DNA of 64,000 bases from a virus: the IMG/VR virus record IMGVR_UViG_3300027792_000292, positions 32,001-96,000 of that record; one strand, given 5' to 3'. Positions 2,200 to 59,710 of this stretch are shown piece after piece (the stretch's first letter is position 1; the number at the start of each line of letters is the position of its first letter). The notes below the pieces were generated by a model. It saw only the letters and a list, made by a program, of their open reading frames with translations, made no database searches and was not told where the DNA came from. Both the position numbers and the translations under genes were made by a program.

Positions 2200-5100
2200 A
2201 TGGCTATATATGTTGATATAAATTCTACCTATACAGGTTCTAATCATTCAGGATCTACATCTGACCCATGGTCTTGGACACAGTGGCTATCAGCTACTAA
2301 AAATACTATTTATTATTTTAGGGGCATGAGAAGTACAAGTTCATCTATATCTTATGGTACTAGCTCATATACTATAGATGCTTGGGATTTGAAGTTATAT
2401 GGGCCGTGGAAATTAACTGTTAATGATGCAAATTCAATAAATGCTAAATACATTAATGGGTACCTATCAGTCTCTAGTACTACTGATTTTAAGTTTTCTG
2501 AACTAACAAATTCTTTTATTGTTGTTCCTACCGCTGCCTTAGTAAATATAGCAGGTAGCGGGACTATAGCAAAATCTACTTTTAAGTGTGGTACTATTAC
2601 CTGTTTAGGTACTACATCAATTACTGACTCTATAATTAATGCCTCAATAACGTTACCCTCTGGAAATGTATTAAACGTATCTGATACAGTGACCGATAAG
2701 TCAGGACCCTCAACTTTTGTAATAGGTTCAGGAACTATAACTCTTACTGACATTATATATAATTGGTCCCCACCAGCGTATCCTACGTACTCTGACCCTG
2801 AGTTATCTAATTTTAATCTTTATGACGGCTATGGCGTAGGGTACCCATTAATATGGACGTATATATTACCTTATAAAAAATATGTATTTTTGAGTTCTAC
2901 GTACACTTCAGCAGGGCATGCAGGGACAATCTCAGATCCCTGGTCTTTTGTAGATTTTAGTTCGGGTATAAGAGATAATGGGGTGTACTATCTTAAGGGT
3001 CAGTATACCATAACATCTAATTTTACGAGTACAAAAACATTTAGTATGCGAGCTTGGGATGTAGGTCAGTACGGACCCTGGAGGATAAGAGGTTCCGCAA
3101 ACTCTTTCTCTGCTATAAATGTATCTTTATACGATGGTTACCTTGAGGGGACAAATGTTAGTTACTTAAATGCTACACGAATGTATATTTACACATCATC
3201 TGGTGTAGGAACTAATACAATTAGTAGCTCAGGTACCGTATCTCAGACAACATTAGTACATAAACAGGACCTGACTATTTCTATTGGCACTGTTACTATG
3301 AGTAATGTTGTTTTTTGGGGAATAGATACTGGCGATAATATCTCTGTATCACTAGGGGCCACTTTAAATATAGATACTTGTTATACAAATAAAACAAATA
3401 GAACAAGTTTATTTACTATATCAGGTACCGTTAATGATACAAATATAACATATAGTCAAGTCTTTTCTTCACTGCCTTTATGGACATCTACAGACCTAAG
3501 AGACTTTAATTTGAATAGCTTAGGTTCGGGGGTAGCATCAGAAAATAACTGGGCAAGCGGAAATAATTTTTACATTAGTTTAGAGGAGACCTCCACCGGA
3601 AATTCTGGAACTTACGGGGATCAGCGTATTGGATGGACTGAGCTACTAACTAAGCTTGGTACTACTCTGACAGCCGGAACAATATTTTACTGTAGAGGCA
3701 GTAGGACGCTATCAGCTAACCTTAGTTATACTGCGAGTGCTATATCTTTTAAGGCTTGGGATAAATCATCTTATGGTCCATGGAGAATAAAGACTAGTAC
3801 CTATACTTTGAATATCCCTTATATAAGTCTTTATGGCGGCCTCATAGATACAACAAGCAGTAGTAGTGCTACTATGTCTTCTCTTAGTGGGTGCTATATA
3901 ATAGGAGGAGCTGGAGATATACCTATACTAAAAGGTTATGCTGCTACTTCTATAACTCTGATTGATAGGACAACATTTGTTTTAACAGGAAAGCTACAAA
4001 TAGACCAACCTCCTTTGGTAGCTAGAACATACACCTTTACTAAATGTATAATGTATACTTCTGGAGGTGCGACATTCCTTGACTCAGACTCTGGGAATAC
4101 GGTAAATATCACAGATTGTATTACTAATAAATCGAACTTAGCTAATTTCACTAATTATACTCCAGCTGTTAATGCTACTAATCTGACCTATGGGTGGACT
4201 CCTCCTGTATCGTTACCTGCATGGAATGCCACTGATTTGTACTCCTATAAACTTGTAGGGACTTCTGATGCATCCGATTATGGATGTCAAGAATTTCCTA
4301 CTATATTATATGCGGATATTGCAGTAACAAATGATTTATCAGAATATAATGGTGAAGACTTTAATAATCCCGCATCTTTTCGTACAGTATACAGCCTACT
4401 ATCAACAATAGCACGGTCTTATATTTATTTAAAAGGAGCTAGAGATATAACTAGCGAGGTAGATTATGATGTCAATAATTTATCTTATCCTAATGCTAGT
4501 ACCACAGTATTAGCATGGGATAAAAGTTTATATGGCCCGTGGCAAATAAGGTCAGAAAGTATATCTAATAAAGGAATAAATTTAGTAGATGGTATAATGT
4601 ACTCTATAAATAATATATCTATATATGGGGTACATGAACAGTCTACTGATAGTATAAGTTATAAAGGTACGTTTTTTAATGCGGGATCGGCAGTTATAGT
4701 AGGTTCCGGGAGAAAAAATATAAAAGGCTGTAGTCTTATATCAAGTACAGTATCTACATCTTTTATAGAGGATGTACCAGATGATGTTCCCTATAATACA
4801 TACATAAATGATAACTTTAATGACGGGGCCGCTAATAGTTGGTGGGATTCCGAATTTAGAACAGGTCCCGATGCTTTTGAGATAGAGCAGTTTCCTCCGG
4901 GATCAGGTAACTACGTAGCAGTACAAAATAGTGATGACGACATAAGGCTCACCCCTGATGGAGTAAGCCTTACTGGTGACTTTGAATTAGAGATGGAAAT
5001 AATTTTTGGAGCTACCCAAACAGGTAATGTGTCAGAGCATCTGATGATTTTTAATGCCGGAACAAATGCTGAAATATTAGATTATTATTGGTCTGGCGGT

Positions 5101-28417: not shown

Positions 28418-28502
28418 ATAGTACATTATCGTGGTGCGTAATGCATATCACTACGAAGGGGTTGGTAAAGGGACTACCAATAACCTTCGCAAAGGAGTTT
28501 AT

Positions 28503-29270
28503 ATGAAGATCACATTTTTGGGTAGTGGATCAGCCTCTGGAACAGAAAACTTTCATAGCAATATTCTTATTGAGACTGAGAAGGTCAGGCTCCTATTTGA
28601 TTGTGGAGATGACTGCAGATGGGCGCTTAAAGAGAAAAAAATGTCTGTGATGGACATTGATGCTATCTATATATCCCATCTTCATGGGGATCACACTCAT
28701 GGCCTGGAAAATGTAGCTTTCTGTACCTATTTTGGAAGAGTAGTGCATGGTGGTAGGAAGGTAAAGCTTATAGCACAGGACCAACTTATGAAGGACTTAT
28801 GGGAGCATACCTTGAGTGGTGGGCTCAGGTCAATTCAGATGATAGACTGTACTCTTGATACTTTCTTTGAGCCTATGCCGATACCAAGTAATGGCTCTTT
28901 CATCTTAGACGAAAAGGGATACAAGTTTGATCTTATTCAAACTATCCATGTGATCTCTGACCGGAGTTTTGTAAAGTCTTTTGGATTGAAGTTTCGTACA
29001 GACAAGAACATGGTTTTCATTACTTCTGATACTCAGTGGGCACCACACCAACTGAGAGACTTTATGATTACTTCTGATGTTGTTTTTCAGGACTGTGAAA
29101 CATCAAAATATCCATCTGGGGTGCATGCTCACTATGAAGATCTTGTGGCATTGCCTGATGAACTCAAATCTAAAATGTGGTTATACCACTACAATGATGG
29201 TCCTCTTCCTGATGCTAAAGCAGCAGGATTCCTAGGATTTGTTACTAAAGGGCAACAGTTCGATTTATAA
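28503..29270 (+). CDS. MBL-fold hydrolase (RNase Z/phosphodiesterase-like)
   Basis: MKITFLGSG, DCG, SHLHGDH, TSDT, HAH, YHY; RBS AAGGAG before ATG 28503. Confidence 0.85.
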   Translation: MKITFLGSGSASGTENFHSNILIETEKVRLLFDCGDDCRWALKEKKMSVMDIDAIYISHLHGDHTHGLENVAFCTYFGRVVHGGRKVKLIAQDQLMKDLWEHTLSGGLRSIQMIDCTLDTFFEPMPIPSNGSFILDEKGYKFDLIQTIHVISDRSFVKSFGLKFRTDKNMVFITSDTQWAPHQLRDFMITSDVVFQDCETSKYPSGVHAHYEDLVALPDELKSKMWLYHYNDGPLPDAKAAGFLGFVTKGQQFDL

Positions 29271-29295: not shown

Positions 29296-31143
29296 ATGAA
29301 AATTCTAAAGAATGCAGGTACTTTTGAAGTACTAACTAAGCCTGAGAATGTTATAGGTGACATAGCAGCAGCAGCCCGTACCTGTTATCAGTCTCAAGAT
29401 AAAGCAAGTCCTGAGAACGATATTAAGCTAGTTAAGAATCTTATCACTCGGGGTCATACGCCCATGTTGGAATTTTCGGACATCACGGTAAGATTTAATG
29501 GGGTATCTAGGGGTTTCTGCTATGATGATGCTACGGAGGTTTTGACAGATGGGGGGTGGAAATATTTTAAAGATACGACTAATAAAGATAATTTTGCTAC
29601 AATAAATATGAGAACTTTTAAAGTGGAGTATCAAAAGAGAATAGATTATGTAGAAGAGGAATGGAATGCTCCGTTAATTTATGGTAAGTCTACACAAGTT
29701 GATTTTGCTGTTACACCTAACCATAGAATGCTCTATTTTCATTATGATTCTAGGATTGATAGAAAATGGAAAATAGATAGCGCCGATAGTATTTATAATA
29801 AGAGAGTAAAGTTTAAGCGAGCTTTTCCATCGTGGGAGGGTAAGAAGATACTTTTATCTTTGGAAAGGTTTGATATTAACTCTGTTTGGTTTGCTAAATT
29901 TATAGGGTTATATGTAACAGATGGATCTTCTTGTAAGAGCAAAGATTCTGGCGGGAGAGTAACCATAAGTCAAACAAAAGAGTCAGGAAAAAAATATATT
30001 GAGGAGGTACTAAACAACTTAGCTGTTGAGATAAAATATGATGATCATGAGTATAGAATAAATAACACAAAGCTATATCATTTTCTAAAGAAACATTTCG
30101 TTTCTGAGTCCACTAAATCTTATAATGGTAAATTCCCTAAGTGGTTGTTAGAAGCTCCTGTTAAATATCTAAGAGCTTTTATAGAAGCAGCTATAGTAGG
30201 CGATGGGAATATACATAGGGTTAATGGGCACAGGGTGATATATTCATCTAATAAGGATTATGCTGATGGGTTTCAAGAAATTTTATCTAAAATTGGTATA
30301 TCCTCTAGTATTAGAGTTGATAATAGAGTAGGGGATAAACGTTTTCTAAATGGTACTATTATAGAAAATAAAGTAGTTGGTTATATAGTCTCCATAAATG
30401 ATAAGACTGATGAGCACTTATTTAATAAGAAGCTGTGGAGTAGAAAATTATATAAAGGCAAAGTTTATTGTGTGACAGTACCTAATGGAACTCTGTATGT
30501 AAGAAGAAATGGCAAACCTATGTGGTCTGGCAACACACATGAGATGGTCCGACATCGACTAGCAAGTTATGCTCAGGAGTCTACTCGTTATGTGGATGAG
30601 AAGGACTTTGAGTTTATAGTCCCGCCACATAGAGATGAAAATGAATGTATTATTAGCCTTGATGACATAGCTAAACTTCCGTATATTCACGGGAACACAC
30701 CAAATAATAACTTTAGTTTTTATACTTGTCTTGATATCATAGGTAAGATGTATAGGAAGTTTAGAGACATAGGATGGAAGCCAGAAGACGTTAGACAGAT
30801 ACTCCCTACAGCTATTCAGGCTCAGATAGTTGTTAAAGCTAACATTGCCGAATGGCGACATATCTTTTTTCGTAGGTGTGATAAGTTTGCACATTGGGAG
30901 ATACGTGTGGTGATGATTGAACTTCTGAAGTGGTGTCAAAATAATATCCCTGTAGTGTTTGATGATTTTAAATTTTTTAAAACTAATGAAGGCTTGGAGT
31001 ACGCAACAATGGTATTGTCTTCAACACAATTAGCTGAAAAAATCATTTATTACACAGACATTTTTGATTTTAAAGATGTTGTATGTAAATTGGATGAGGC
31101 TACAAGAAATGAATTATTAAAGGCATTGAATAGCCCTGAATAG
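29296..31143 (+). CDS. thyX: flavin-dependent thymidylate synthase interrupted by an intein
   Basis: GHTPMLE, SRGF|...|THEMVRHR...QESTRY, AHWEIR. Confidence 0.9.
   Translation: MKILKNAGTFEVLTKPENVIGDIAAAARTCYQSQDKASPENDIKLVKNLITRGHTPMLEFSDITVRFNGVSRGFCYDDATEVLTDGGWKYFKDTTNKDNFATINMRTFKVEYQKRIDYVEEEWNAPLIYGKSTQVDFAVTPNHRMLYFHYDSRIDRKWKIDSADSIYNKRVKFKRAFPSWEGKKILLSLERFDINSVWFAKFIGLYVTDGSSCKSKDSGGRVTISQTKESGKKYIEEVLNNLAVEIKYDDHEYRINNTKLYHFLKKHFVSESTKSYNGKFPKWLLEAPVKYLRAFIEAAIVGDGNIHRVNGHRVIYSSNKDYADGFQEILSKIGISSSIRVDNRVGDKRFLNGTIIENKVVGYIVSINDKTDEHLFNKKLWSRKLYKGKVYCVTVPNGTLYVRRNGKPMWSGNTHEMVRHRLASYAQESTRYVDEKDFEFIVPPHRDENECIISLDDIAKLPYIHGNTPNNNFSFYTCLDIIGKMYRKFRDIGWKPEDVRQILPTAIQAQIVVKANIAEWRHIFFRRCDKFAHWEIRVVMIELLKWCQNNIPVVFDDFKFFKTNEGLEYATMVLSSTQLAEKIIYYTDIFDFKDVVCKLDEATRNELLKALNSPE
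29518..30534 (+). mobile_element. 339-aa intein with LAGLIDADG homing endonuclease
   Basis: Begins CYDDATEVLT, TPNH block B, GLYVTDG and AIVGDG motifs, ends VYCVTVPNG...WSGN before Thr. Confidence 0.9.
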
Positions 31144-40498: not shown

Positions 40499-41707
40499 AT
40501 GAGTATGCTAAATGCGTCTGTTTTTTCCATAACTCCTCATATGCAAAGAGTTATGGATATCAATGGTTGTTATGCTTCAATAATGAGGGCAGAAAAGAAA
40601 CAAGAAGAGAGTAGTGATGGGTTACCCTCAGGTATACCTATACCAGTTCTTCCTGTAGATTACCTGAAAGATCGCCCCAAGGAATGGGTTGGCGGAGAGG
40701 GGTCTTACGTAGTACCTGTAGATTCTGATTGGGGTCTTTGGTTCAATTGGACTATGAATAATCCAATGGATACATCTGTTCTCGTTTCAGTAAAAGGGAT
40801 GAATCCATTGACCGGACAGAAAATAAATGGGTACACTCTTGAAGAGACTGGGAATGAATGCCCTATTCATAAGACTCCTTTTAAGAGGGGCAAGCTTTGT
40901 ACTGAGTGTGGATTTAAGTGGCCATCACAGAATTTTATTTCAGCCCCCAACCCACTTTATCTCGATGGTTTTAGACAAGCAGATGGAAATGTTCGTCAGT
41001 TCTTCTTCACTGAAGATATGGCACGTTCAATACCAGAGTTGGTAATTGGTAAAGAAGATACTGTGCCAGCGTTTGGATTCTGCTTTTATCGAAGAAAGAA
41101 GTATGAGATAACGTATGAGGGAGGGAATAGATGTAAGAACGAATTTCCAAAAATTCAAGATATAAATGTAAGTTACCTAATAGGAGAAACAGGCGCACTA
41201 TGTACTTCCTGTGATTCTTTAGAATACGAACGTAGAACTTCTGGAGCCAGGCTCAGAGGCGGTGGCGTAGGGTCTACGAAGCGTTTTGGGCATCTATATA
41301 GTAAAGGACTCAGTAGTAGCTACGAGGCTTCCTATAGTACTTTATGTTGTGCTGCTGATGCCTCAGTTTCTTCATCAGAGCCAGAATTAAGGGCTTTCTA
41401 TGCGGATTCTGATGTAGCACATACTATCAATCTTGTAGACTCCTTTAGTGATGCTATAGAAGACCGTAGCGAAGTAAGGCTATATAAAAGTGCTGATGTG
41501 GGTATCGGCGCTGGAGCTAGGATAAAACAGGACTTCATAAAATCTATAGTTCCTTTAGAGGATTGGAAGGAAAAACCCGAAGGTACACTCAGGTTATATT
41601 TTGTCTTCCAGGAACAGTTTGAGGCTATGGCTGAAGCAGGCTTTAACGACCTTAGCGGAGCTAAGGAAGGATATTTGGTAAATCTTCCCGTAGGAGGTAG
41701 CAAATGA
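40499..41707 (+). CDS. conserved hypothetical protein (LP.G.P.PV..VD / GIGAGA.IKQ family) with Zn ribbon
   Basis: 402-aa ORF; CPIH...CTECG insert. Confidence 0.6.
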   Translation: MSMLNASVFSITPHMQRVMDINGCYASIMRAEKKQEESSDGLPSGIPIPVLPVDYLKDRPKEWVGGEGSYVVPVDSDWGLWFNWTMNNPMDTSVLVSVKGMNPLTGQKINGYTLEETGNECPIHKTPFKRGKLCTECGFKWPSQNFISAPNPLYLDGFRQADGNVRQFFFTEDMARSIPELVIGKEDTVPAFGFCFYRRKKYEITYEGGNRCKNEFPKIQDINVSYLIGETGALCTSCDSLEYERRTSGARLRGGGVGSTKRFGHLYSKGLSSSYEASYSTLCCAADASVSSSEPELRAFYADSDVAHTINLVDSFSDAIEDRSEVRLYKSADVGIGAGARIKQDFIKSIVPLEDWKEKPEGTLRLYFVFQEQFEAMAEAGFNDLSGAKEGYLVNLPVGGSK

Positions 41708-45255: not shown

Positions 45256-45284
45256 TTGATCTTAAATAAGTGAAATGGTATATT
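45256..45284 (+). promoter_or_regulatory. sigma70-type promoter for RNA unit 1
   Basis: TTGATC-17-TATATT. Confidence 0.75.
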
Positions 45285-45307: not shown

Positions 45308-45456
45308 GGGTTCTGCACTCTGACAGATAATGGATGCGTACATTTGCATTTGCATTTAGCTCAGTCGGTAGAGCTGAGGAATAATAATCCTTTGGTCGGC
45401 GGTTCAACTCCGCTAGTGCATTCCTTTCTATCGCATCTGCGACTTGTGCAGAACCC
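45308..45456 (+). ncRNA. scaffold RNA unit 1 carrying tRNA-like cloverleaf (anticodon AAT)
   Basis: GGGTTCTGCAC/GTGCAGAACCC outer stem; GATGCG/CGCATC inner stem; cloverleaf 45351-45420 without CCA. Confidence 0.8.
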
Positions 45457-45470
45457 TTTTAAAATTTTTC

Positions 45471-45499
45471 TTGATCATTGAATACCGAAATGGTATATT
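45471..45499 (+). promoter_or_regulatory. sigma70-type promoter for RNA units 2-3
   Basis: TTGATC-17-TATATT. Confidence 0.75.
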
Positions 45500-45535
45500 A
45501 GTGTTACTCAAGTGAAACTTGGAAAGTTCTTTGAA

Positions 45536-45662
45536 AGATACGAAGCATACTCAAACCCTTGATGCATACATTATAGCTCATTGGTAGAGCGTTTGCCATT
45601 TAAGCAAAAGGTACGGTTCAAATCCGTTCGTCCCGCATTAGTAACTCGTGTGCTTTGTATCT
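45536..45662 (+). ncRNA. scaffold RNA unit 2 carrying D, anticodon and T arms without acceptor stem
   Basis: AGATACGAAGCATAC/GTGTGCTTTGTATCT; GCTC-ATTGGTA-GAGC; TTTGC-CATTTAA-GCAAA; ACGG-TTCAAAT-CCGT. Confidence 0.8.
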
Positions 45663-45766
45663 ATATATTTCGAGAGTTCTCGCTACTCAACGACCACGGA
45701 TTAAAAGACGTATACGAAGAGTAAAGGGTCTCTCGACTGAAAATAAGTTTTTTGATAATAGATCTT

Positions 45767-45914
45767 TGACATGAGTTACACTCCAACTTTTGATGCGTAC
45801 ATTTGCTTTTTCGTCCAATTGGTAGGACATTACTCTGATAAAGTGATTGTTGGGGGTTCAAGTCCCTCAAAAGCAGCCCAAAACTCGCATTATCAACTTG
45901 TGTAACTCATGTCA
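45767..45914 (+). ncRNA. scaffold RNA unit 3 carrying a complete tRNA-Ile(GAT)-like cloverleaf
   Basis: Perfect 15-bp outer stem TGACATGAGTTACAC/GTGTAACTCATGTCA followed by a U tract. Confidence 0.8.
45804..45876 (+). tRNA. tRNA-Ile(GAT)-like, embedded in unit 3
   Basis: TGCTTTT/AAAAGCA acceptor, GTCC/GGAC D stem, loop CTGATAA, GGGGG-TTCAAGT-CCCTC; G73 then CCCA is atypical, so it may be a mimic. Confidence 0.55.
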
Positions 45915-45922
45915 TTTTTTTC

Positions 45923-45951
45923 TTGATCTTTAATTACCAAAAAGGTATATT
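45923..45951 (+). promoter_or_regulatory. sigma70-type promoter for RNA units 4-7
   Basis: TTGATC-17-TATATT. Confidence 0.75.
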
Positions 45952-45982
45952 AGAATACAGACCTGAAAAGGTCAAGCTCTTT

Positions 45983-46158
45983 GAAAGATAGAAGCACTCT
46001 CTAATTTTGGATGCATACATTGGTTCAAGCGTTTGCTAACTAAAGCAAAAGATTGTTCGTTCAAGTCGAACTTCCCCCACCAAGTAGATTTTAATGTCTA
46101 CTTGGTGGGGGAAAAGCTTAATAAAAAAAGCATTTATAACTTGAGTGTTTCTTCTTTC
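45983..46158 (+). ncRNA. scaffold RNA unit 4 carrying tRNA circularly permuted in the D loop
   Basis: Order GGTTC-AAGC, anticodon arm TTTGC/GCAAA, T arm GTTCG-TTCAAGT-CGAAC, TTCCCCC-A-CCA, hairpin linker, GGGGGAA, AA, GCTT. Confidence 0.75.
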
Positions 46159-46196
46159 ATTCGTTCCTTGTCCCTATGTAATAGGGGTTGTTCTAT

Positions 46197-46336
46197 GAAA
46201 AGTATCTTCTAACAGTTAGGGCGTACATTATCCTGTAAAGATAAACGCCTGGGCATTAAGCGCTCAGGCATCTGTATTCCTTCCGCCTTAGCGCGGCTGG
46301 GATATAGCACACGCATTGATTACTCGGATACTTCTC
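46197..46336 (+). ncRNA. scaffold RNA unit 5 with Tyr(GTA)-like anticodon hairpin
   Basis: AAGTATCT/GGATACTT outer stem; GGCGTACATT...CGCATT-GATT-ACTC; TTATC-CTGTAAA-GATAA; GCCTGGGC/GCTCAGGC arm. Confidence 0.7.
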
Positions 46337-46356
46337 TTGTCATACTCTTTGAAATT

Positions 46357-46483
46357 ATAGTGTATTTATCCTCTAATGCTGAGGGCTTACATTTTCTACG
46401 GTTGAAAAACAAGCCTAAGCGCACTCCCGTTTGGTGGGAGGAAGCGATGGGTCGAGCACTTAGGACTCGGATAAATACATTAT
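46357..46483 (+). ncRNA. scaffold RNA unit 6 with degenerate cargo
   Basis: ATAGTGTATTTATCC/GGATAAATACATTAT; GGCTTACATT...GCACT-TAGG-ACTC; CTCCC/GGGAG hairpin. Confidence 0.7.
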
Positions 46484-46502
46484 TATATAATTACTATGAG
46501 TA

Positions 46503-46651
46503 TAAGTCTCATCTTCTAACTTTTGATGCGTACATTGTCATGCTGGTTCGAATCCAGTCGCTCTTTTCGGAGAGCGTAGCCGAATGGTAAGGCACCCGTT
46601 TAAGGAACAGGAACAAAACAAACTTCGCATTAGTAACTTGGATGGGATTTA
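46503..46651 (+). ncRNA. scaffold RNA unit 7 carrying tRNA permuted at the variable loop (YrlA-like T-acceptor-D order)
   Basis: GCTGG-TTCGAAT-CCAGT, CGCTCTT-TTCG-GAGAGCG, TA, GCC-GAATGGTAA-GGC, CCCGT-TTAAGGA-ACAGG. Confidence 0.8.
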
Positions 46652-46653
46652 TT

Positions 46654-46689
46654 AAGAGCCGGGATTCGAAAGGATTCCGGCTCTTTTTT
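46654..46689 (+). terminator. intrinsic terminator ending the RNA array
   Basis: AAGAGCCGGGATTC-GAAA-GGATTCCGGCTCTT-TTTT. Confidence 0.85.
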
Positions 46690-46804: not shown

Positions 46805-47062
46805 ATGGCAAGTGTGCATATTCGTTACGATGGTAGTACCAGGGAAGTCGATTTCGAAAATATTTTTCCAGAAGATCGACTTACAGCTATAGGGATTGCC
46901 AATACCGCGCAGGTTAACTCACGCAACGTGAGCGCCGATAACGTCAAGACTGCCGTAGCGCAGTATCTCGATATCGGATTGGGAGAACTTGATGGGTATA
47001 ACGTCGAGTTCCATAAGAACGGAAACATCACCGTTCGCCCTGATGCTGTATTTGGGAAGTAA
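46805..47062 (+). CDS. ubiquitin-like (beta-grasp) protein, C-terminus PDAVFG-K
   Basis: 85 aa, AGGAGG RBS, strand-strand-helix-strand pattern, penultimate Gly; JAB and E1 nearby. Confidence 0.6.
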   Translation: MASVHIRYDGSTREVDFENIFPEDRLTAIGIANTAQVNSRNVSADNVKTAVAQYLDIGLGELDGYNVEFHKNGNITVRPDAVFGK

Positions 47063-47132: not shown

Positions 47133-48731
47133 ATGAATCGTCAGCGTAACACTCAAACTGTTTCCGCGCCACAAATACCACAGGTTGAACAGGACATCCG
47201 TGTTCAAATGCTCAATAGCTTCATGTCCTGTCCACATCGTGATACTGATGCGATCAGGAAGATACATGAGGATCTGCGACAGCGTGACCCTTCATTCTAC
47301 TCTCATCTTGCTGCCTGGTATGAGAAGAATGGCGAACTTCGCGACCACAAGGAAGTATTCATTTCTATGTTGATCGTAGACCCCTATCTCGATAACCGTG
47401 AGGTTGGTCTTGCCCTGTGGCAGAAAGCTGTGCCTTTCATGAAGACCCGTATCCTTGGTTTCATTAAGGGTAAGAAGGTCAAGATTCGTGAGAAGACAAA
47501 TCAGACACGCCAAGTTGGAAAGAAGAAAATTCCGGTAGTAAACGTGACCGAGAAAGTTGTGGGCCTTTTTAAGAACGTGCCCTCAGCGTTCAAGACTGAG
47601 GTGGTACACTATCTAAAGTGGTTAGAGACCGACCCTGAGCGTTTTGATGGTGTGGCTATGCGCAACTCTGAGGATTTGAGGACGCTCTACGCTTCCTTGA
47701 AAATCCCTCACTCAAAGAGAGTGCAACAAATCCTTTGGGAGAAGAAGTACCCAAAGGAGAGTAAGTTGAATGTTTTCAAGGAGATTACGGATGCGAAGTC
47801 TCCTGAAGAAGCAGCAACGCTCATTGTTAAGAATAAGGTTCCGTATACTACGGCAGTAGGTCTCATTGAGAAGATGACCCCCTCCATCTTGGTTGCTCTC
47901 ATCAATAATATGAGTTCCCAGGAAGTTATTAACAACATTGCTTCTCTTCAGGAGAGTGGTGCATTAGATAACCCTGATACTAAGGCTATGGTTGAAAAGA
48001 AGCTTAAGCAGGCTGAGACCGCAAAGAATGTTACAGCCTTGAAGTCTAAAGCAGCGATTAATACAGGTCGTATCAAGGATGAGGCTGTCGTGGCGCAACT
48101 TGATAAGATTGCAGATGTACAAATAAAGAGCAAAGGTATCATTATGGCTTCTACAGCGATCTTTGTAGATCGCTCTGGATCGATGAGCATTGCTATTGAG
48201 TCAGGGAAGCATTGTGCAGCGATGGTATCCGGTGCTACAGAAGCTCCTTTGTATGTGGTTGCCTTTGATACGCTTCCAATGGAAATCTATCCAGTGTCCG
48301 CACGTCCAAAGGACAGGACCACTACCATGACCGACTGGGAAAGGGCATTTAAGCCTGTGCGCGATGGTGGTTCGACTTCTATGGGATGTGCTTTGGAGTA
48401 TCTGCGTCAAAAGAAGATGTACGTTGAGCAGATTGTTGTTATTACTGATGAGGGTGAGAATGCAACCCCCATGTTCACTGATGTCTATACTCGGTACTCC
48501 GAGGAGATGAAGGTGAAGCCTCATGTGGTTATCATCCGTACACCAAATTCAGGTCATACTTTCAGCACAAACCTGAAGAGGGCTGGTATTAGTTATGATG
48601 TATACACTCCTAATGGGTCAGACTACTATGGTTTACCAGGATTGATTCCACTTCTTGCCCGAACATCGAAGCTGGACCTTCTTATGGAGATCATGGATAC
48701 TCCGCTTCCTACACGTAGGCAGTGGAAGTAA
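47133..48731 (+). CDS. TROVE/Ro60-like helical domain plus vWA protein
   Basis: N-terminal DP.FY.HLA.WY...G..RD helical region; C-terminal vWA DRSGS, GGST, ITDE; size typical of Ro60. Confidence 0.65.
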   Translation: MNRQRNTQTVSAPQIPQVEQDIRVQMLNSFMSCPHRDTDAIRKIHEDLRQRDPSFYSHLAAWYEKNGELRDHKEVFISMLIVDPYLDNREVGLALWQKAVPFMKTRILGFIKGKKVKIREKTNQTRQVGKKKIPVVNVTEKVVGLFKNVPSAFKTEVVHYLKWLETDPERFDGVAMRNSEDLRTLYASLKIPHSKRVQQILWEKKYPKESKLNVFKEITDAKSPEEAATLIVKNKVPYTTAVGLIEKMTPSILVALINNMSSQEVINNIASLQESGALDNPDTKAMVEKKLKQAETAKNVTALKSKAAINTGRIKDEAVVAQLDKIADVQIKSKGIIMASTAIFVDRSGSMSIAIESGKHCAAMVSGATEAPLYVVAFDTLPMEIYPVSARPKDRTTTMTDWERAFKPVRDGGSTSMGCALEYLRQKKMYVEQIVVITDEGENATPMFTDVYTRYSEEMKVKPHVVIIRTPNSGHTFSTNLKRAGISYDVYTPNGSDYYGLPGLIPLLARTSKLDLLMEIMDTPLPTRRQWK

Positions 48732-48785: not shown

Positions 48786-49649
48786 ATGAACGACGTACTA
48801 GCACTTATCAAAAAGATGGGGGAGAAAGAAGATACTATTACTAAGAGTATCTTTATATCTCCTATATATGGGAATGAGTATGTCGTTACTCGTATCAATG
48901 GGTTAGTTCATAAGTTGGGGGTACCCGACTCTACTAAGCCAGGTTGGTACAAGTTGAAGGCTTGTAATTTTAAAAGAGCCAAAGTAGTTGGTAACGCAGA
49001 CTTCATTGAAGTTGAAGAGTATCTCAAGATGCTCACGAAGATACGAGTGATATTAGTCTACAAAAAAGACGAATTGTACTTTGGTGTTCCTTTGAAAAAC
49101 AATTCAGCTGGCTTTGGCGTGTCAGATCTTATCCCGATATATTTAACATCTGATGATCTTGTAGGACCATTTGAGAAGGTCGTTTGCGGTTTTGACGGGG
49201 CTAACCTCTGGTACTATCAGAATGATATCTCTGCTGATCCTGCCAGGACGGAGTATTTAAGGGAGAGCTTTGATAAGTTTGTTCGACCAGATAAGGTACA
49301 GTATACAGGATTAACTCTTGAGGAGAAGATAGCTTACACTCTCAGATTCAATTTGGATAAGAAAGCCAGAGAGTCTTTGAAGGAAGTACTTATACAGAAA
49401 GATGTAGAGTTTGCTGGTGGTGAGTTTGTGAAGTTCGTAGAAAGAAATGATCACTACAGCGTCACCTATAAGATAGGTGGAAATCAATATACGAGTTATG
49501 TAACTAAAGATGAGAGTCATCATGTACTTACTGCAGGGGTATGTTTAAATGGTCACGATAGAGACTATGATTTGACTTCTCTAATAACGGTTCTAAGAGA
49601 AGGACAGAGAAGGGGTCTTATTCATAGATATAACAATACTACAGAATAG
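48786..49649 (+). CDS. conserved hypothetical, candidate divergent E2 conjugating enzyme
   Basis: C-terminal HVLTAGVCLNG...DLTSLITVL resembles the UBC active-site G.(I/V)CL segment. Confidence 0.4.
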   Translation: MNDVLALIKKMGEKEDTITKSIFISPIYGNEYVVTRINGLVHKLGVPDSTKPGWYKLKACNFKRAKVVGNADFIEVEEYLKMLTKIRVILVYKKDELYFGVPLKNNSAGFGVSDLIPIYLTSDDLVGPFEKVVCGFDGANLWYYQNDISADPARTEYLRESFDKFVRPDKVQYTGLTLEEKIAYTLRFNLDKKARESLKEVLIQKDVEFAGGEFVKFVERNDHYSVTYKIGGNQYTSYVTKDESHHVLTAGVCLNGHDRDYDLTSLITVLREGQRRGLIHRYNNTTE

Positions 49650-50788: not shown

Positions 50789-51145
50789 ATGAATGAAAAG
50801 TGTTGGTTTATCTTCGGTAAGAAGGTAAAGAATACATACATCGGATGGTTGAAGTATAGCTCTGAGGGAAATCCAGTAAGTGTAAGTTTTAATTGGTCAG
50901 ATGCAGCAAAGAAGAATCTTCTTGGATTTCATCACACACATCCTGATGGCTGTTTATGGTTTTCTTCAAGAGATGATAAGACAATGAAAGCTTGGGCCAG
51001 GGCAGAGGGAAAACCCCTTATCTGCTCAGTAAGAAGTAGTGGGAAAGATGCAGCAGCGATATGGAAGAGAATGGAAGATAAAAGTGTAGGGCATCTACCG
51101 CTACATGTAATGATAAAAGGTAACCTATTTATGGCATGGGAATAA
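50789..51145 (+). CDS. JAB/JAMM metalloprotease
   Basis: N-terminal E-x-C..IFG and GFHHTHP-x6-S-x2-D JAMM motif. Confidence 0.8.
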   Translation: MNEKCWFIFGKKVKNTYIGWLKYSSEGNPVSVSFNWSDAAKKNLLGFHHTHPDGCLWFSSRDDKTMKAWARAEGKPLICSVRSSGKDAAAIWKRMEDKSVGHLPLHVMIKGNLFMAWE

Positions 51146-52297: not shown

Positions 52298-52936
52298 ATG
52301 AAGACCTTTGTACATGAGGAAGTTTACCGGGGTAAGGAAACCCTGGATAAGATTGCAAAAGCTAAGTTCACTATTTGCGGGCTCGGAGCTATCGGCTCAA
52401 ACCTTGTGATGAACATGGCTCGTCAGAGTTTCACGAATTTCACGGTTATTGATTTTGACCGTATAGAGGATCACAATCGTCATACACAAATTTGGGGTGC
52501 AAAAGAAGTCGGTCAGATGAAGGCTGCTATGATGCAGCGCCGAATGTACGATGAGATGGGTTTGAAGATTCAGATAGAGCCAAAGAAGTTAGATGAGGCC
52601 AACATTAAGAAGCTTGTACAGAAGGACACTATTGTGATAGATGGTTTTGACAATACTGAAGCTCGTGGTCTTGTGACTACGTTCTGTACTGAGAACAAGA
52701 TTCAATGCTTGCACATAGGGATGCGTCAGGACTACGCAGAGGTTATCTGGAATGAAAACTACATAGTCCCTAAGAAGCACGGAAAAGATATCTGTGAGTA
52801 TCCCCTTGCCAGGAATATTATTCTGTTGGCAGTGGCTGTGGGTACAGAAACTATTCTTCGCTATGTGGATACTGGGGTAAAAGAGAACTATGCAATCACC
52901 CTAAAAGACTGCAATATCTCTAAGCTGGAGTATTAA
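52298..52936 (+). CDS. ThiF/E1-like adenylating enzyme
   Basis: GLGAIG, DFDRIE.HN..TQ, K, DGFDN..AR, DICEY. Confidence 0.9.
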   Translation: MKTFVHEEVYRGKETLDKIAKAKFTICGLGAIGSNLVMNMARQSFTNFTVIDFDRIEDHNRHTQIWGAKEVGQMKAAMMQRRMYDEMGLKIQIEPKKLDEANIKKLVQKDTIVIDGFDNTEARGLVTTFCTENKIQCLHIGMRQDYAEVIWNENYIVPKKHGKDICEYPLARNIILLAVAVGTETILRYVDTGVKENYAITLKDCNISKLEY

Positions 52937-58591: not shown

Positions 58592-59710
58592 ATGCTTGAG
58601 ATACTTAAATTTTTAAATGAGCATCCTTATGATTGGAAGCAGGTTCTGGAAGCAGAACCATATTGTATGACCATACGGGAGAAGGGTAACTTTGTACTTT
58701 TTATGTACAATCAAATCGAATCCGATTTCAATATTCCTTTAGTACAGGAATGCCGTGGAATCGTATTAGAGAAGGATACCTGGAAAGTTCTATGTTTTCC
58801 TTTTACCAAATTCTGGAATGCCGGGGAATCCAAGGCAGCGGTACTTGATTGGGGCTCTGCGCGAGTACAGGAGAAAATAGATGGTTCCATGATAAAGCTT
58901 TGGTGGTACGAACCAGAGTGGAGAGTATCTACCATGTCCATGATAGATGCAAAAGATTGTACCTTACAGAACGATTTAGATGTCAGATACAATACTTTCT
59001 ATGATTTGTTTATGGAAGGCGCAAATAAAAGAGCTTTAGACTTTGAAGCTTTAAATAAAGATTATACGCATATGTTTGAGTTAGTAGGACCTTACAATCG
59101 AGTGGTTGTGCCATATAAAGACATTGCTATAACCCACACGGGAACTAGAGATAACAGAACTCTCGAAGAGTTAGATATCGACCTTGGGGTTCCTAAGCCT
59201 AAGTCTTATGGGTTCAAGGCCCCAGAAGATGTTCTGGCTATGGCAGCTGCCTTGCCTTTCTCTGAAGAGGGCTATGTGGTTGTAGATGCTAATTGGAATC
59301 GAATAAAAATCAAAGGCCCGGCCTATGTAGCTGTGCATCACCTCAAAAATAATGGTGACATAAATAAGAAAAGGGCTTTAGCGCTTGTCATGCTTAATGA
59401 GCAGGAAGAGTTCCTGTCCTATTTCCCGGAGTACAAAACATACTTCGATGTTATCACTGATGCTTTCAATACCTATTTAGGTAAGGTAAAAGCTGATATA
59501 GATTCTATTGAGGGAAAGGTATTTGAAACCAGGAAGGAATATGCTCTAACTGTTAAGGGTATGACTAACTCCGCCCTTATGTTCTTTATTATGGACGGTA
59601 GAGTTAAGAAGGAAGATTGGGAAAAGCATATACGTTCTTTGCCCTCAGATAAAGTAGTAGAGTATCTACATTTAAAAAATATAAAAGAGTCATTGGAGGT
59701 AAAAGAGTAA
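58592..59710 (+). CDS. T4 Rnl1-like RNA ligase
   Basis: ECRG, PFTKFWN, EKIDGS, FEL, EGYVV, RIKIK. Confidence 0.88.
   Translation: MLEILKFLNEHPYDWKQVLEAEPYCMTIREKGNFVLFMYNQIESDFNIPLVQECRGIVLEKDTWKVLCFPFTKFWNAGESKAAVLDWGSARVQEKIDGSMIKLWWYEPEWRVSTMSMIDAKDCTLQNDLDVRYNTFYDLFMEGANKRALDFEALNKDYTHMFELVGPYNRVVVPYKDIAITHTGTRDNRTLEELDIDLGVPKPKSYGFKAPEDVLAMAAALPFSEEGYVVVDANWNRIKIKGPAYVAVHHLKNNGDINKKRALALVMLNEQEEFLSYFPEYKTYFDVITDAFNTYLGKVKADIDSIEGKVFETRKEYALTVKGMTNSALMFFIMDGRVKKEDWEKHIRSLPSDKVVEYLHLKNIKESLEVKE

Follow-up and report, generated by a model that had tools for sequence, protein, structure and literature searches.

Seven Y-RNA-like units with variable anticodon loops beside a divergent Ro60 gene in a phage genome

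Why would the RNAs that accompany a Ro60 protein carry complete anticodon loops, and why would those loops differ from one RNA to the next? The question is raised by a giant-phage locus in the IMG/VR virus record IMGVR_UViG_3300027792_000292, of which we analysed one stretch of 64,000 nucleotides (nt), bases 32001-96000 of the 131-kb record (CheckV completeness 24%). We call this stretch the window, and coordinates are positions in it unless a related locus (L and a number) is named. The window has a G+C content of 37%, and its genes include a DNA polymerase A, a DnaB-type helicase, a primase, ThyX, an NAD-dependent ligase and an Rnl1-family RNA ligase. On its + strand, at 45308-46652, lie seven tandem Y-RNA-like units, which a preliminary description made from the letters alone had taken for a panel of anticodon-like loops, presented on a TROVE (Ro60) ring as baits, decoys or sensors. 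Here we present an analysis of this array and of its relatives; the reading with the best support takes the anticodon loop to be the specificity element of Y RNAs that would dock on Ro60 and whose heads mimic whole transfer RNAs (tRNAs).

All seven units fold to one plan in RNAfold: a basal stem of 10-15 pairs in which both ends of the unit are paired, an internal loop, a short helix, and a variable head. The 5′ strand of the short helix reads GAUGCG and then UACAUU, and its 3′ strand CGCAUU and then AGUAACUYG; across the aligned units this Y helix shows covariation of GC with AU, and the motifs GC.UACA and ACU do not vary. The 5′ 12-mer GATGCRTACATT has five exact copies in the whole 64 kb, every one of them within the array. 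From the adjacency of the genes and the shape of the RNAs we infer that the region is an array of seven Y-RNA genes serving a divergent phage Ro60, with the conserved helix and its bulge as the presumed docking site. The units are as follows.

45308..45456, + strand: U1, a Y-stem unit with a direct tRNA-like head at 45350-45424; its anticodon arm at 45376-45392 has the stem GAGGA/UCCUU and the loop AUAAUAA (A34) at 45381-45387
45536..45662, + strand: U2, a Y-stem unit; the head combines D, anticodon and T arms but has no acceptor stem; loop CAUUUAA at 45597-45603 on the stem UUUGC/GCAAA, a Lys-UUU type loop with A33
45767..45914, + strand: U3, a Y-stem unit with a complete direct tRNA-like head at 45804-45876; loop CUGAUAA at 45835-45841 on the stem UUACU/AGUGA, and a tail G-CCC-AAAAC
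45982..46159, + strand: U4, a Y-stem unit with an anticodon-type arm at 46032-46049, a T arm at 46055-46071 and a long hairpin at 46072-46114; 8-nt loop UAACUAAA at 46037-46044 on the stem UUUGC/GCAAA
46197..46336, + strand: U5, a Y-stem unit with a three-hairpin head, not tRNA-like; its first hairpin, of 5 base pairs, at 46228-46244 has the loop CUGUAAA at 46233-46239
46357..46483, + strand: U6, a Y-stem unit with a three-hairpin head, not tRNA-like; hairpin UUUUC/GAAAA at 46391-46407
46502..46652, + strand: U7, a Y-stem unit whose tRNA-like head is permuted and runs from a T arm through a closed acceptor hairpin and a D arm to a full anticodon arm at 46595-46611 and an A-rich linker; loop UUAAGGA at 46600-46606 on the stem CCCGU/ACAGG, with 4 of 5 pairs

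Reading the sequence, we found the loops that the preliminary description had quoted for U1, U2, U3, U4, U5 and U7 where it had placed them. Its TTGAAAA loop in U6 did not survive folding, as these letters overlap the 3′ strand of the UUUUC/GAAAA hairpin and the loop of the best fold is UACGGUU, at 46396-46402. How far the loops occupy a true anticodon-arm position depends on the unit. U1, U2 and U3 exceed the Rfam tRNA (RF00005) cut-off of 29 bits, with 53.8, 41.3 (over model positions 7-64) and 60.9 bits, and they are the only tRNA matches in the 131-kb record; ARAGORN calls U1 Ile-AAU and U3 Ile-GAU. Model R1 gives 90.9 bits to U1 and 105.1 bits to U3, both of which were in its training set, and 55.6 bits to U2, which was outside it. 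For U7, which scores 98.1 bits with model R2 (U7 being in the training set), the position is supported by covariation among nine relatives, and for U4 by the arm together with the adjoining T arm, its fold having neither D arm nor acceptor stem and its homologues lying in L007 and L126. The claim fails for U5 and U6, whose folds have neither D nor T arm and which have no relative in the loci fetched; U5 also returned no tRNA or covariance-model match. An origin of the U5 loop as a relic of tRNA-Tyr was set aside, there being no D arm, no T arm and no relative, and the loops of both units are anticodon-like in shape only. Covariation backs a tRNA-like head with a complete anticodon arm in U1, U2, U3 and U7, and U4 has part of one. 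Past its acceptor stem U1 reads U-CCU, not CCA.

Promoter-like sites precede three of the units and a terminator-like hairpin follows the last; promoter matches in the region are no more numerous than in shuffled sequence, and the promoter-like sites below are consensus matches alone.

45256..45284, + strand: promoter-like site P1 before U1 (TTGATC, 17-nt spacer, TATATT), a consensus match
45471-45499 and 45923-45951, + strand: identical copies of the P1 site before U2 and before U4, consensus matches
46654..46685, + strand: terminator-like hairpin (14 pairs, then a T run) at the end of the array, after U7

The protein for which the array is proposed to work is encoded downstream, 481 nt from the end of the array to the start of the gene.

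47133..48731, + strand: divergent Ro60/Rsr orthologue of 532 amino acids (aa), an alpha-helical repeat ring with a VWA domain

An AlphaFold2 model built on an alignment of relatives reached a mean confidence (pLDDT) of 81.8, and the top 12 Foldseek matches in the PDB are all Ro60/Rsr/TROVE structures matched at full length (E 6.5e-11 to 1.8e-8, TM score 0.52-0.65), among them 9kop, 2nvo, 1yvr and 9nfa, with the Ro60 of Thermus phage phiLo as the best. The residues D346, S348 and S350 of the VWA metal-ion site (MIDAS, DxSxS) are invariant in 37 sequences. Pfam TROVE gave no match to the protein at E<=5, and Pfam returned weak VWA matches only. Of 120 listed relatives, 9 have a precomputed Pfam assignment, in each case to a VWA-type family (PF13519 or PF05762), and a profile of 37 relatives against the PDB had as its sole match the Thermus phage TROVE protein, a weak one (E=0.24). 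Judged by its predicted fold, then, the protein is a divergent Ro60 orthologue, which bears out the TROVE ring of the preliminary description and places the clade among those invisible to Pfam. A search of viral contigs with the single window sequence found no relative, and tblastn against a phage collection found only one, LR756511.1; in all, more than 480 relatives of about 520 aa are known to us, on contigs of up to 470 kb. A 402-aa open reading frame (ORF) at 40499-41707 was considered as a second, split Ro and rejected, because hhalign showed no relation to the Ro profile.

Do the relatives of this Ro60 gene have arrays of the same kind? We fetched 16 loci from viral contigs, one from a deposited 595-kb uncultured phage, and 80 of the 487 relatives on metagenome contigs; clusters of the same 5′ motif adjoin the Ro gene in most of them, and in the first 14 loci the units were read individually. 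The heads fall into two classes. In class A the head is a direct tRNA: between its acceptor stem and the Y helix lies an internal loop, UACAWW / N-CCA-AAAA. In class B the head is permuted, running through a T arm, a sealed acceptor hairpin, a D arm, a complete anticodon arm and an A-rich linker. The Y helix thus leaves the tRNA at the acceptor end in class A and at the variable-loop position in class B. Both architectures are supported by RNAalifold covariation, with compensatory changes in 20 of 23 pairs in class A (15 units) and in 19 of 22 pairs in class B (9 units), including in each class all five pairs of the anticodon stem. Covariance models found 137 class-A and 68 class-B matches in 92 sources. 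We dropped 24 redundant loci, overlapping matches, and matches that had no Y motif, fewer than 4 anticodon-stem or T-stem pairs, or a loop outside 4-12 nt, which left a census of 123 units in 54 of the 65 non-redundant loci. In the most distant relatives (about 42% Ro identity) the class-B units are mostly without an anticodon arm. A search by DNA pattern for the Y helix was unproductive: it hit 93 viral-contig stretches, 7 of the 80 fetched had at least 3 motif copies, and the 3 inspected were chance matches in coding regions.

Some relatives depart from the common plan. The array of the 595-kb relative (L001, 1760-5270) is longer and nested, with GAAA-tetraloop Y stems inside tRNA-like RNAs, so that one Rfam tRNA match of 50.6 bits (1789-1915) spans 127 nt; its unit motif reads GUCCCC..AGCWUACAAAC / ..ACUUGGAC, and at 2706-2969 a highly structured head of 264 nt within a Y stem has no Rfam match at E<=0.1. 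In L008 a class-A unit (3821-3940) has a 10-nt tandem duplication in its anticodon arm, which makes a 17-nt loop.

The loops of the census keep the geometry of real anticodon loops. They are 7 nt long in 106 of the 123 units, and among these 106 we count Y32 in 98, U33 in 84, R37 in 104 and A38 in 97, with 33 different triplets and 64 different loops. The control consisted of 70 conventional tRNAs, taken from the main tRNA clusters in two near-complete relatives; these tRNAs cover all 20 amino acids and have 57 distinct loops. Thirty of the 106 Y-embedded loops are identical to a conventional loop, when 16.5 +/- 3.7 (maximum 33) are expected from independent sampling of positions in 2000 trials; counted as distinct loops, 17 of the 64 match against 9.8 expected, and a further 31 come within one base of a conventional loop, with the change often at position 33 or 34. 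A34 occurs in 27 of the 106 units as compared with 3 of the 70 conventional tRNAs, and position 33 is not U in 22 of the 106, with U33 in 64 of the 70 controls.

The loops do not match the bodies that carry them. The variable region has 4-6 nt in all 86 class-A units, including 4-5 nt in the 17 of 17 with Leu, Ser or Tyr triplets, whereas conventional tRNAs for Leu, Ser and Tyr have lengths of 83-89 nt. In L016 a tRNA-Leu(UAG) of 84 nt occurs in the same locus as a Y-embedded “Leu(UAG)” of 75 nt. We conclude that the loops are grafted onto a single type of body, which argues against ordinary decoding.

This bears on the first rival explanation, in which Ro60 chaperones precursors of tRNAs. Class-A units would be cut by RNase P and trimmed at the 3′ end to yield CCA-ended tRNAs that aid translation with nuclease-resistant loops, and the Y stem would be a Ro60-bound by-product or a timing device. 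The anticodon of a real tRNA is expected to be conserved. Here the triplet is the least conserved part of the unit, and in close relatives a single body is found with UAU, CAA, CUU and GCA; the Leu, Ser and Tyr triplets on class-I bodies and the frequencies of A34 and of bases other than U at position 33 also speak against it, as do the sealed acceptor stem of class B and the window units themselves, which read CCC (U3) or CCU (U1) or have no acceptor stem. The relatives, moreover, already hold full conventional tRNA sets, three near-complete ones having 31-47 tRNA matches each, nearly all clustered away from the array. In favour of precursors, N-CCA followed by an A-rich single-stranded tract is encoded by 39 of the 58 class-A units with at least 5 of 6 modelled acceptor pairs, a single-stranded UACAUU leader precedes position +1, and Rfam scores reach 60-70 bits. 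The YrlA of M. smegmatis is cut by RNase P and receives CCA (PMC4201824), and for phage tRNAs with altered anticodon loops an escape from nucleases has been proposed (PMC10264068). On balance we consider tRNA precursors unlikely.

A second rival takes the loops as guides, whose triplets would base-pair with the anticodon loops of host tRNAs complementary to them, or with loops in other RNAs, and so lead them to decay through Ro60 and an exonuclease, or sequester them. The evidence in its favour is indirect: the loops are exposed, with U-turn geometry, and sequence-specific, and Ro60 with Y RNA is described as specialising PNPase for the decay of structured RNA (PMC4201824). However, the complements of the commonest triplets (AUU, UGA, UCU) are mostly non-standard as bacterial anticodons, and many loops equal real tRNA loops rather than their complements, which makes pairing of this sort very unlikely. 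Manipulation of T-box riboswitches was also set aside. T-box specifier codons mostly call for G34, which is found in only 15 of the 106 loops. As to stop anticodons, the conventional tRNA cluster of L195 (3117-3190) holds a tRNA with the amber anticodon CUA, and three Y-embedded units carry UCA.

How fast, then, do the loops change? Each class-A unit was paired with its nearest relative, giving 20 independent pairs with at most 25% divergence outside the loop, counted on model-fitted alignments in greedy pairs, without a tree. The first two rows below omit 4 of the 20 pairs, whose loops are of unequal or non-7-nt length.

Anticodon positions 34-36: 26 of 48 sites differ
Loop positions 32, 33, 37 and 38: 11 of 64 sites differ
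Anticodon stem: 30 of 200 sites differ
Other stems: 57 of 675 sites differ
Other unpaired positions: 120 of 1101 sites differ

Elsewhere in the unit there is about 0.1 difference per site. A single stem, AUUUC/GAAAU, carries the loops CUUAUAA, CUCAAAA, CUCUUAA, UUGCAAA and the 6-nt UUUACA in different units. The neutral yardstick is the Ro gene, whose 4-fold degenerate sites differ by 0 to 0.70 in the same locus pairs. In the 15 pairs for which both values are available, 23 of 45 anticodon sites have changed, with about 17 of 45 expected from the 4-fold sites. Triplet change thus roughly keeps pace with synonymous change, or slightly outpaces it, and the rest of the RNA changes 4-5 times more slowly. 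The expectation that the loops would be the fastest-varying part of homologous arrays was correct as far as the unit itself is concerned; over most pairs the pace is only about synonymous.

A third rival starts from exactly this near-neutral rate: the head might be a generic tRNA-shaped tether, which recruits to Ro60 a partner that reads shape (PNPase, RNase P, a CCA-adding or a modification enzyme), with a functionless triplet left to drift. It gains from complexes of Ro60, Y RNA and PNPase in D. radiodurans and with the Ro60 of a Thermus phage (PMC4201824, PMC12135203), and from the concentration of YrlA conservation at the elbow (10.1101/312249). It fares worse with the loops as such. Real tRNA loops are enriched, as given above, and the same loops recur on unrelated stems over deep divergence: CUAUUAA is found 12 times, on no fewer than 10 different stems, CUCUUAA and CUUCUAA are found in 4 units each, and CAUUUAA (the U2 loop) is shared by 3 units, which include both topologies and of which those in L111 and L121 have other stems. 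Recurrent loops also include CUUGAGA, in 4 units, and UUAAGGA (the U7 loop), in 2 units, the other being L119:828. Since identical loops recur on different stems, loop sequence matters in at least some unit types. Nor does a tether account for a canonical loop being kept here when the published YrlA works without one (10.1101/312249).

The plainest single case of loop change, which also speaks against a drifting triplet, comes from two nearly identical loci. L121 and L122 differ at 8 of 6382 aligned bases (6.4 kb), and all 8 differences lie at 3947-3965, positions 26-44 of one anticodon arm, with the Ro gene identical. The arm reads AUCGA-UAAUCAA-UCGAU in one and AUUGA-UUUCUAA-UCAAU in the other, so that two stem pairs are compensated. 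Mutagenesis of the type caused by diversity-generating retroelements was rejected for this patch, as the 8 changes are not adenine-specific, and so was gene conversion from a visible paralogue, as neither loop occurs in another unit of the array. With this patch and the recurrence of loops in mind, we regard the tether as improbable.

Of the 6677 bases compared between L150 and L152, 19 differ, and one of these differences falls in a loop (UUAAUAC and UUAACAC). Among locus pairs with a 4-fold divergence of at most 0.1, 5 of 57 anticodon sites have changed, in 3 events in 19 loops where about 0.9 would be expected. For L146/L147 and L148/L151 the values for the rest of the unit are inflated by shifts in the model alignment, the loci differing at only 7 and 18 bases overall. 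Downstream of Ro, in L137 (4156-4164) and L138 (5666-5674), 8 of 9 adjacent bases differ as if a hairpin segment had been inverted, in loci that are otherwise 99.6% identical.

Sequencing runs add a little. In three DNA runs of two other studies (X2, X3, X4) we found pieces identical to the window, with partial coverage in some runs, and these are therefore uninformative on loop variation. The contigs of X12, one metatranscriptome library, carry a relative at roughly 90%. Over the U2 head (45573-45633) no difference is listed; in U4, CUGAAAA replaces the UAACUAAA of the window on an unchanged UUUGC/GCAAA stem, and the U6 hairpin has the loop UACCAUU where the window has UACGGUU. CUGAAAA on a UUUGC/GCAAA stem is also found in L126, at 59% Ro identity.

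Taken together, the loop statistics, the mismatch of loops and bodies, the purine-33 and A34 variants of real loops, and the literature lead us to propose that Ro60-docked units engage host proteins that read anticodons, as decoys or competitive inhibitors, a serious if tentative possibility. In this mechanism the ends of each RNA would be closed into a long Y stem that docks on Ro60 and presents the variable head. The anticodon arm, canonical in shape, would offer copies or one-base variants of real tRNA loops and be exchanged quickly between relatives. Tethered to Ro60, the mimics would be unable to act in translation, and could instead engage host proteins that read anticodon loops, foremost the nucleases or modifiers of tRNA-targeting defence. 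The bound or nicked RNA might even be handed to decay or repair associated with Ro60, and U5 and U6 would be non-tRNA Y RNAs with other partners. A more specific version has a library of tRNA mimics mounted on Ro60 with one constant body, in which the anticodon arm is an exchangeable cassette, passed as a unit from one near-identical genome to another, that either copies a host tRNA loop or, with purine 33 or A34, forms an uncleavable trap; this we hold to be rather doubtful. Positions 33 and 34 presumably adjoin the cut site of some anticodon nucleases, such as that of PrrC on tRNA-Lys. In the contest of phage T5 with PARIS, a phage tRNA reportedly has a loop that differs at or near the cleavage site of the nuclease.

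Several points weigh against this proposal, beside the CCA tails noted above. Only 4 to 5 of the 7 units are tRNA-like, and 2 of 7 (U5 and U6) are not. The array units have no match to Rfam Y_RNA (RF00019) at E<=10, and none reaches the gathering score of 69 of YrlA (RF02553), to which U7 is the sole match. Because the anticodon rate is near the synonymous rate, absence of constraint explains most of the rate data; the excess among low-divergence pairs is only suggestive, and the rate evidence is modest. So is the enrichment of distinct loops that match conventional tRNAs. Loops with A34 and R33 match no host tRNA and are therefore not faithful decoys. The conservation of CUAUUAA across deep divergence speaks against simple diversification. 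The X12 contigs, although from an RNA library, may derive from DNA, and carry no information on RNA ends. Each unit having a different loop, as first described, is true of the window and of all 41 related arrays with at least 2 units, but it does not exceed chance, since high loop diversity alone gives such a result at P=0.13 (0 duplicates against a permutation mean of 1.8). Finally, no RNA ligase was found beside Ro in 11 of the 12 relatives scanned, and that of the window is 12 kb off.

How do these RNAs compare with known ones? Among the closest are the YrlA RNAs (RF02553; PMC4201824; 10.1101/312249), which likewise lie beside a Ro60 gene, sometimes more than one to a locus, and whose 5′ and 3′ ends form a long stem. 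They share with the permuted heads the tRNA-mimic order of T arm, closed acceptor hairpin and D arm, and U7 matches positions 30-81 of the YrlA model (24.7 bits, E=0.02). Published YrlA RNAs have neither anticodon loop nor free CCA, and their Ro-binding stem continues from the anticodon stem (10.1101/312249). The phage heads, unlike them, keep a covarying 5-bp anticodon stem with a 7-nt loop. Phage class A is unpermuted and often encodes CCA, the Y stem leaves at the variable loop (class B) or the acceptor end (class A), and the arrays have up to 7 units, none of which reaches the Rfam cut-off. A complete anticodon arm and the class-A topology are therefore new features among Y RNAs, and a YrlA without an anticodon loop gave no earlier pointer to partners that read anticodons.

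Among phages, one parallel is Thermus phage phiLo, which also has a Ro60 with Y-like RNAs, Yrl1 and Yrl2, upstream of its gene (PMC12135203; PDB 9KOP, 9L5Y). Its two Yrl RNAs have a CGAA motif and are described as stem-bulge-stem, and the available parts of PMC12135203 make no mention of tRNA-like heads or anticodon arms; the role proposed there is the hijack of host PNPase. In phage Bas63, gp130 is a Ro60-like protein encoded beside annotated tRNA genes, some of which may be Y RNAs according to its authors, and it counters a defence system (PMC11482910). That system, “ppl” (an ATPase and a PHP domain), is proposed to degrade DNA, not tRNA (PMC11482910), and by tblastn gp130 has no sequence relation to the window Ro60; the available parts of PMC11482910 contain no analysis of the RNAs. 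A survey of jumbo phages mentions that a few of them have ROT/TROVE proteins, together with a partner that is tRNA-like (PMC7824862).

The phage tRNAs of van den Berg 2023 (PMC10264068), whose altered anticodon loops are predicted to let them escape nucleases, resemble the units in being tRNA-shaped RNAs with loops altered at or near cleavage sites. They are free decoders that replace cleaved host tRNAs, whereas the array units are embedded in a Y stem, mismatched to their bodies, and often have A34 or R33. In the rsr-yrlBA-rtcBA RNA repair operon, too, Ro60 and a tRNA-like Y RNA are tied to tRNA damage, although this operon is bacterial, regulated by RtcR, and has one YrlA without an anticodon loop (PMC7790460); neither RtcB nor RtcA was found in the window. 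The idea that YrlA's tRNA-like domain inhibits an anticodon nuclease is already in print, Hughes 2020 having suggested YrlA as a possible competitive inhibitor (PMC7790460). Our searches of the open literature turned up no account of Ro60 arrays in giant phages, of Y RNAs that keep the whole anticodon arm, or of hypervariable Y-RNA anticodons, and blastn of the array returned only pieces common to ordinary tRNA genes.

If the cassette version of the proposal is right, the array would be an evolvable RNA-based panel of counter-defence against tRNA-targeting immunity, and the first assigned function for the effector head of a Y RNA. The family offers whole-tRNA heads, a clear specificity element and natural loop-swap variants, so that the decoy or inhibitor idea is directly testable with known nucleases. 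There is also a practical side: tRNA scanners would report such units as odd tRNA genes with A34 or stop anticodons, which may mislead estimates of phage tRNA content or genetic code.

The neighbourhood of the Ro gene contains further conserved genes and a distant RNA ligase.

46805..47062, + strand: small conserved 85-aa ORF, which separates the array from the Ro gene and has the C-terminus ..RPDAVFGK; its homologue in L001 (4155-4391) ends ..FG
48786..49649, + strand: conserved 287-aa protein after the Ro gene, fold unassigned
58592..59710, + strand: RNA ligase of the T4 RnlA (Rnl1) family, about 12 kb downstream of the array

Searches with family profiles gave no match for the 85-aa ORF, and between L150 and L152, which are 99.7% identical, this small ORF (2640-2850) holds 6 of the 19 differences. 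A homologue of the 287-aa protein, of 283-299 aa, lies downstream of Ro in 7 of the 12 relatives with scanned ORFs; its AlphaFold2 model (pLDDT 54.7) was too poor for a structure search, and an atlas search gave no match. The ligase matches Pfam RNA_lig_T4_1 (E=3.4e-12), PHROG 562 and TIGR02308 (62.4 bits, cut-off 242), and is the only neighbour that NCBIfam named. In one distant relative, genes for an Rnl2-type ligase and Tpt1 adjoin Ro. As a link to nucleases this ligase and Tpt1 context is weak and circumstantial.

Some 4-6 kb downstream of the array lie a weak, below-cut-off match to a JAB-type peptidase and a ThiF-type E1 (50789-51145; 52298-52936), and ThiF recurs downstream of Ro in L007, L009, L143 and L161. 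Together with the 85-aa ORF, these genes may form a ubiquitin-like or sulfur-carrier system tied to the Ro locus. In L007 (8783-10664), past ThiF and downstream of Ro, lie a P-loop kinase (AAA_33) and a PARP-like protein with WGR and PARP regulatory domains. Mobile elements also seem to insert around the Ro and array locus, with a HEARO/omega-type RNA of 90.2 bits beside one array (L006, 3121-3306) and TnpB/Cas12f-like ORFs adjoining the Ro gene in L016 (8242-8865) and L129 (6195-7541, 8620-10227). Further upstream in the window, at 28431-29270, a metallo-beta-lactamase-fold protein matches the anti-Pycsar Apyc1 family above cut-off (E=4.4e-24) and is likely, from this match, a counter-defence gene. 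Next to it, at 29296-31143, a LAGLIDADG-type domain interrupts a 615-aa ThyX ORF and points to an intein or to the insertion of a homing endonuclease.

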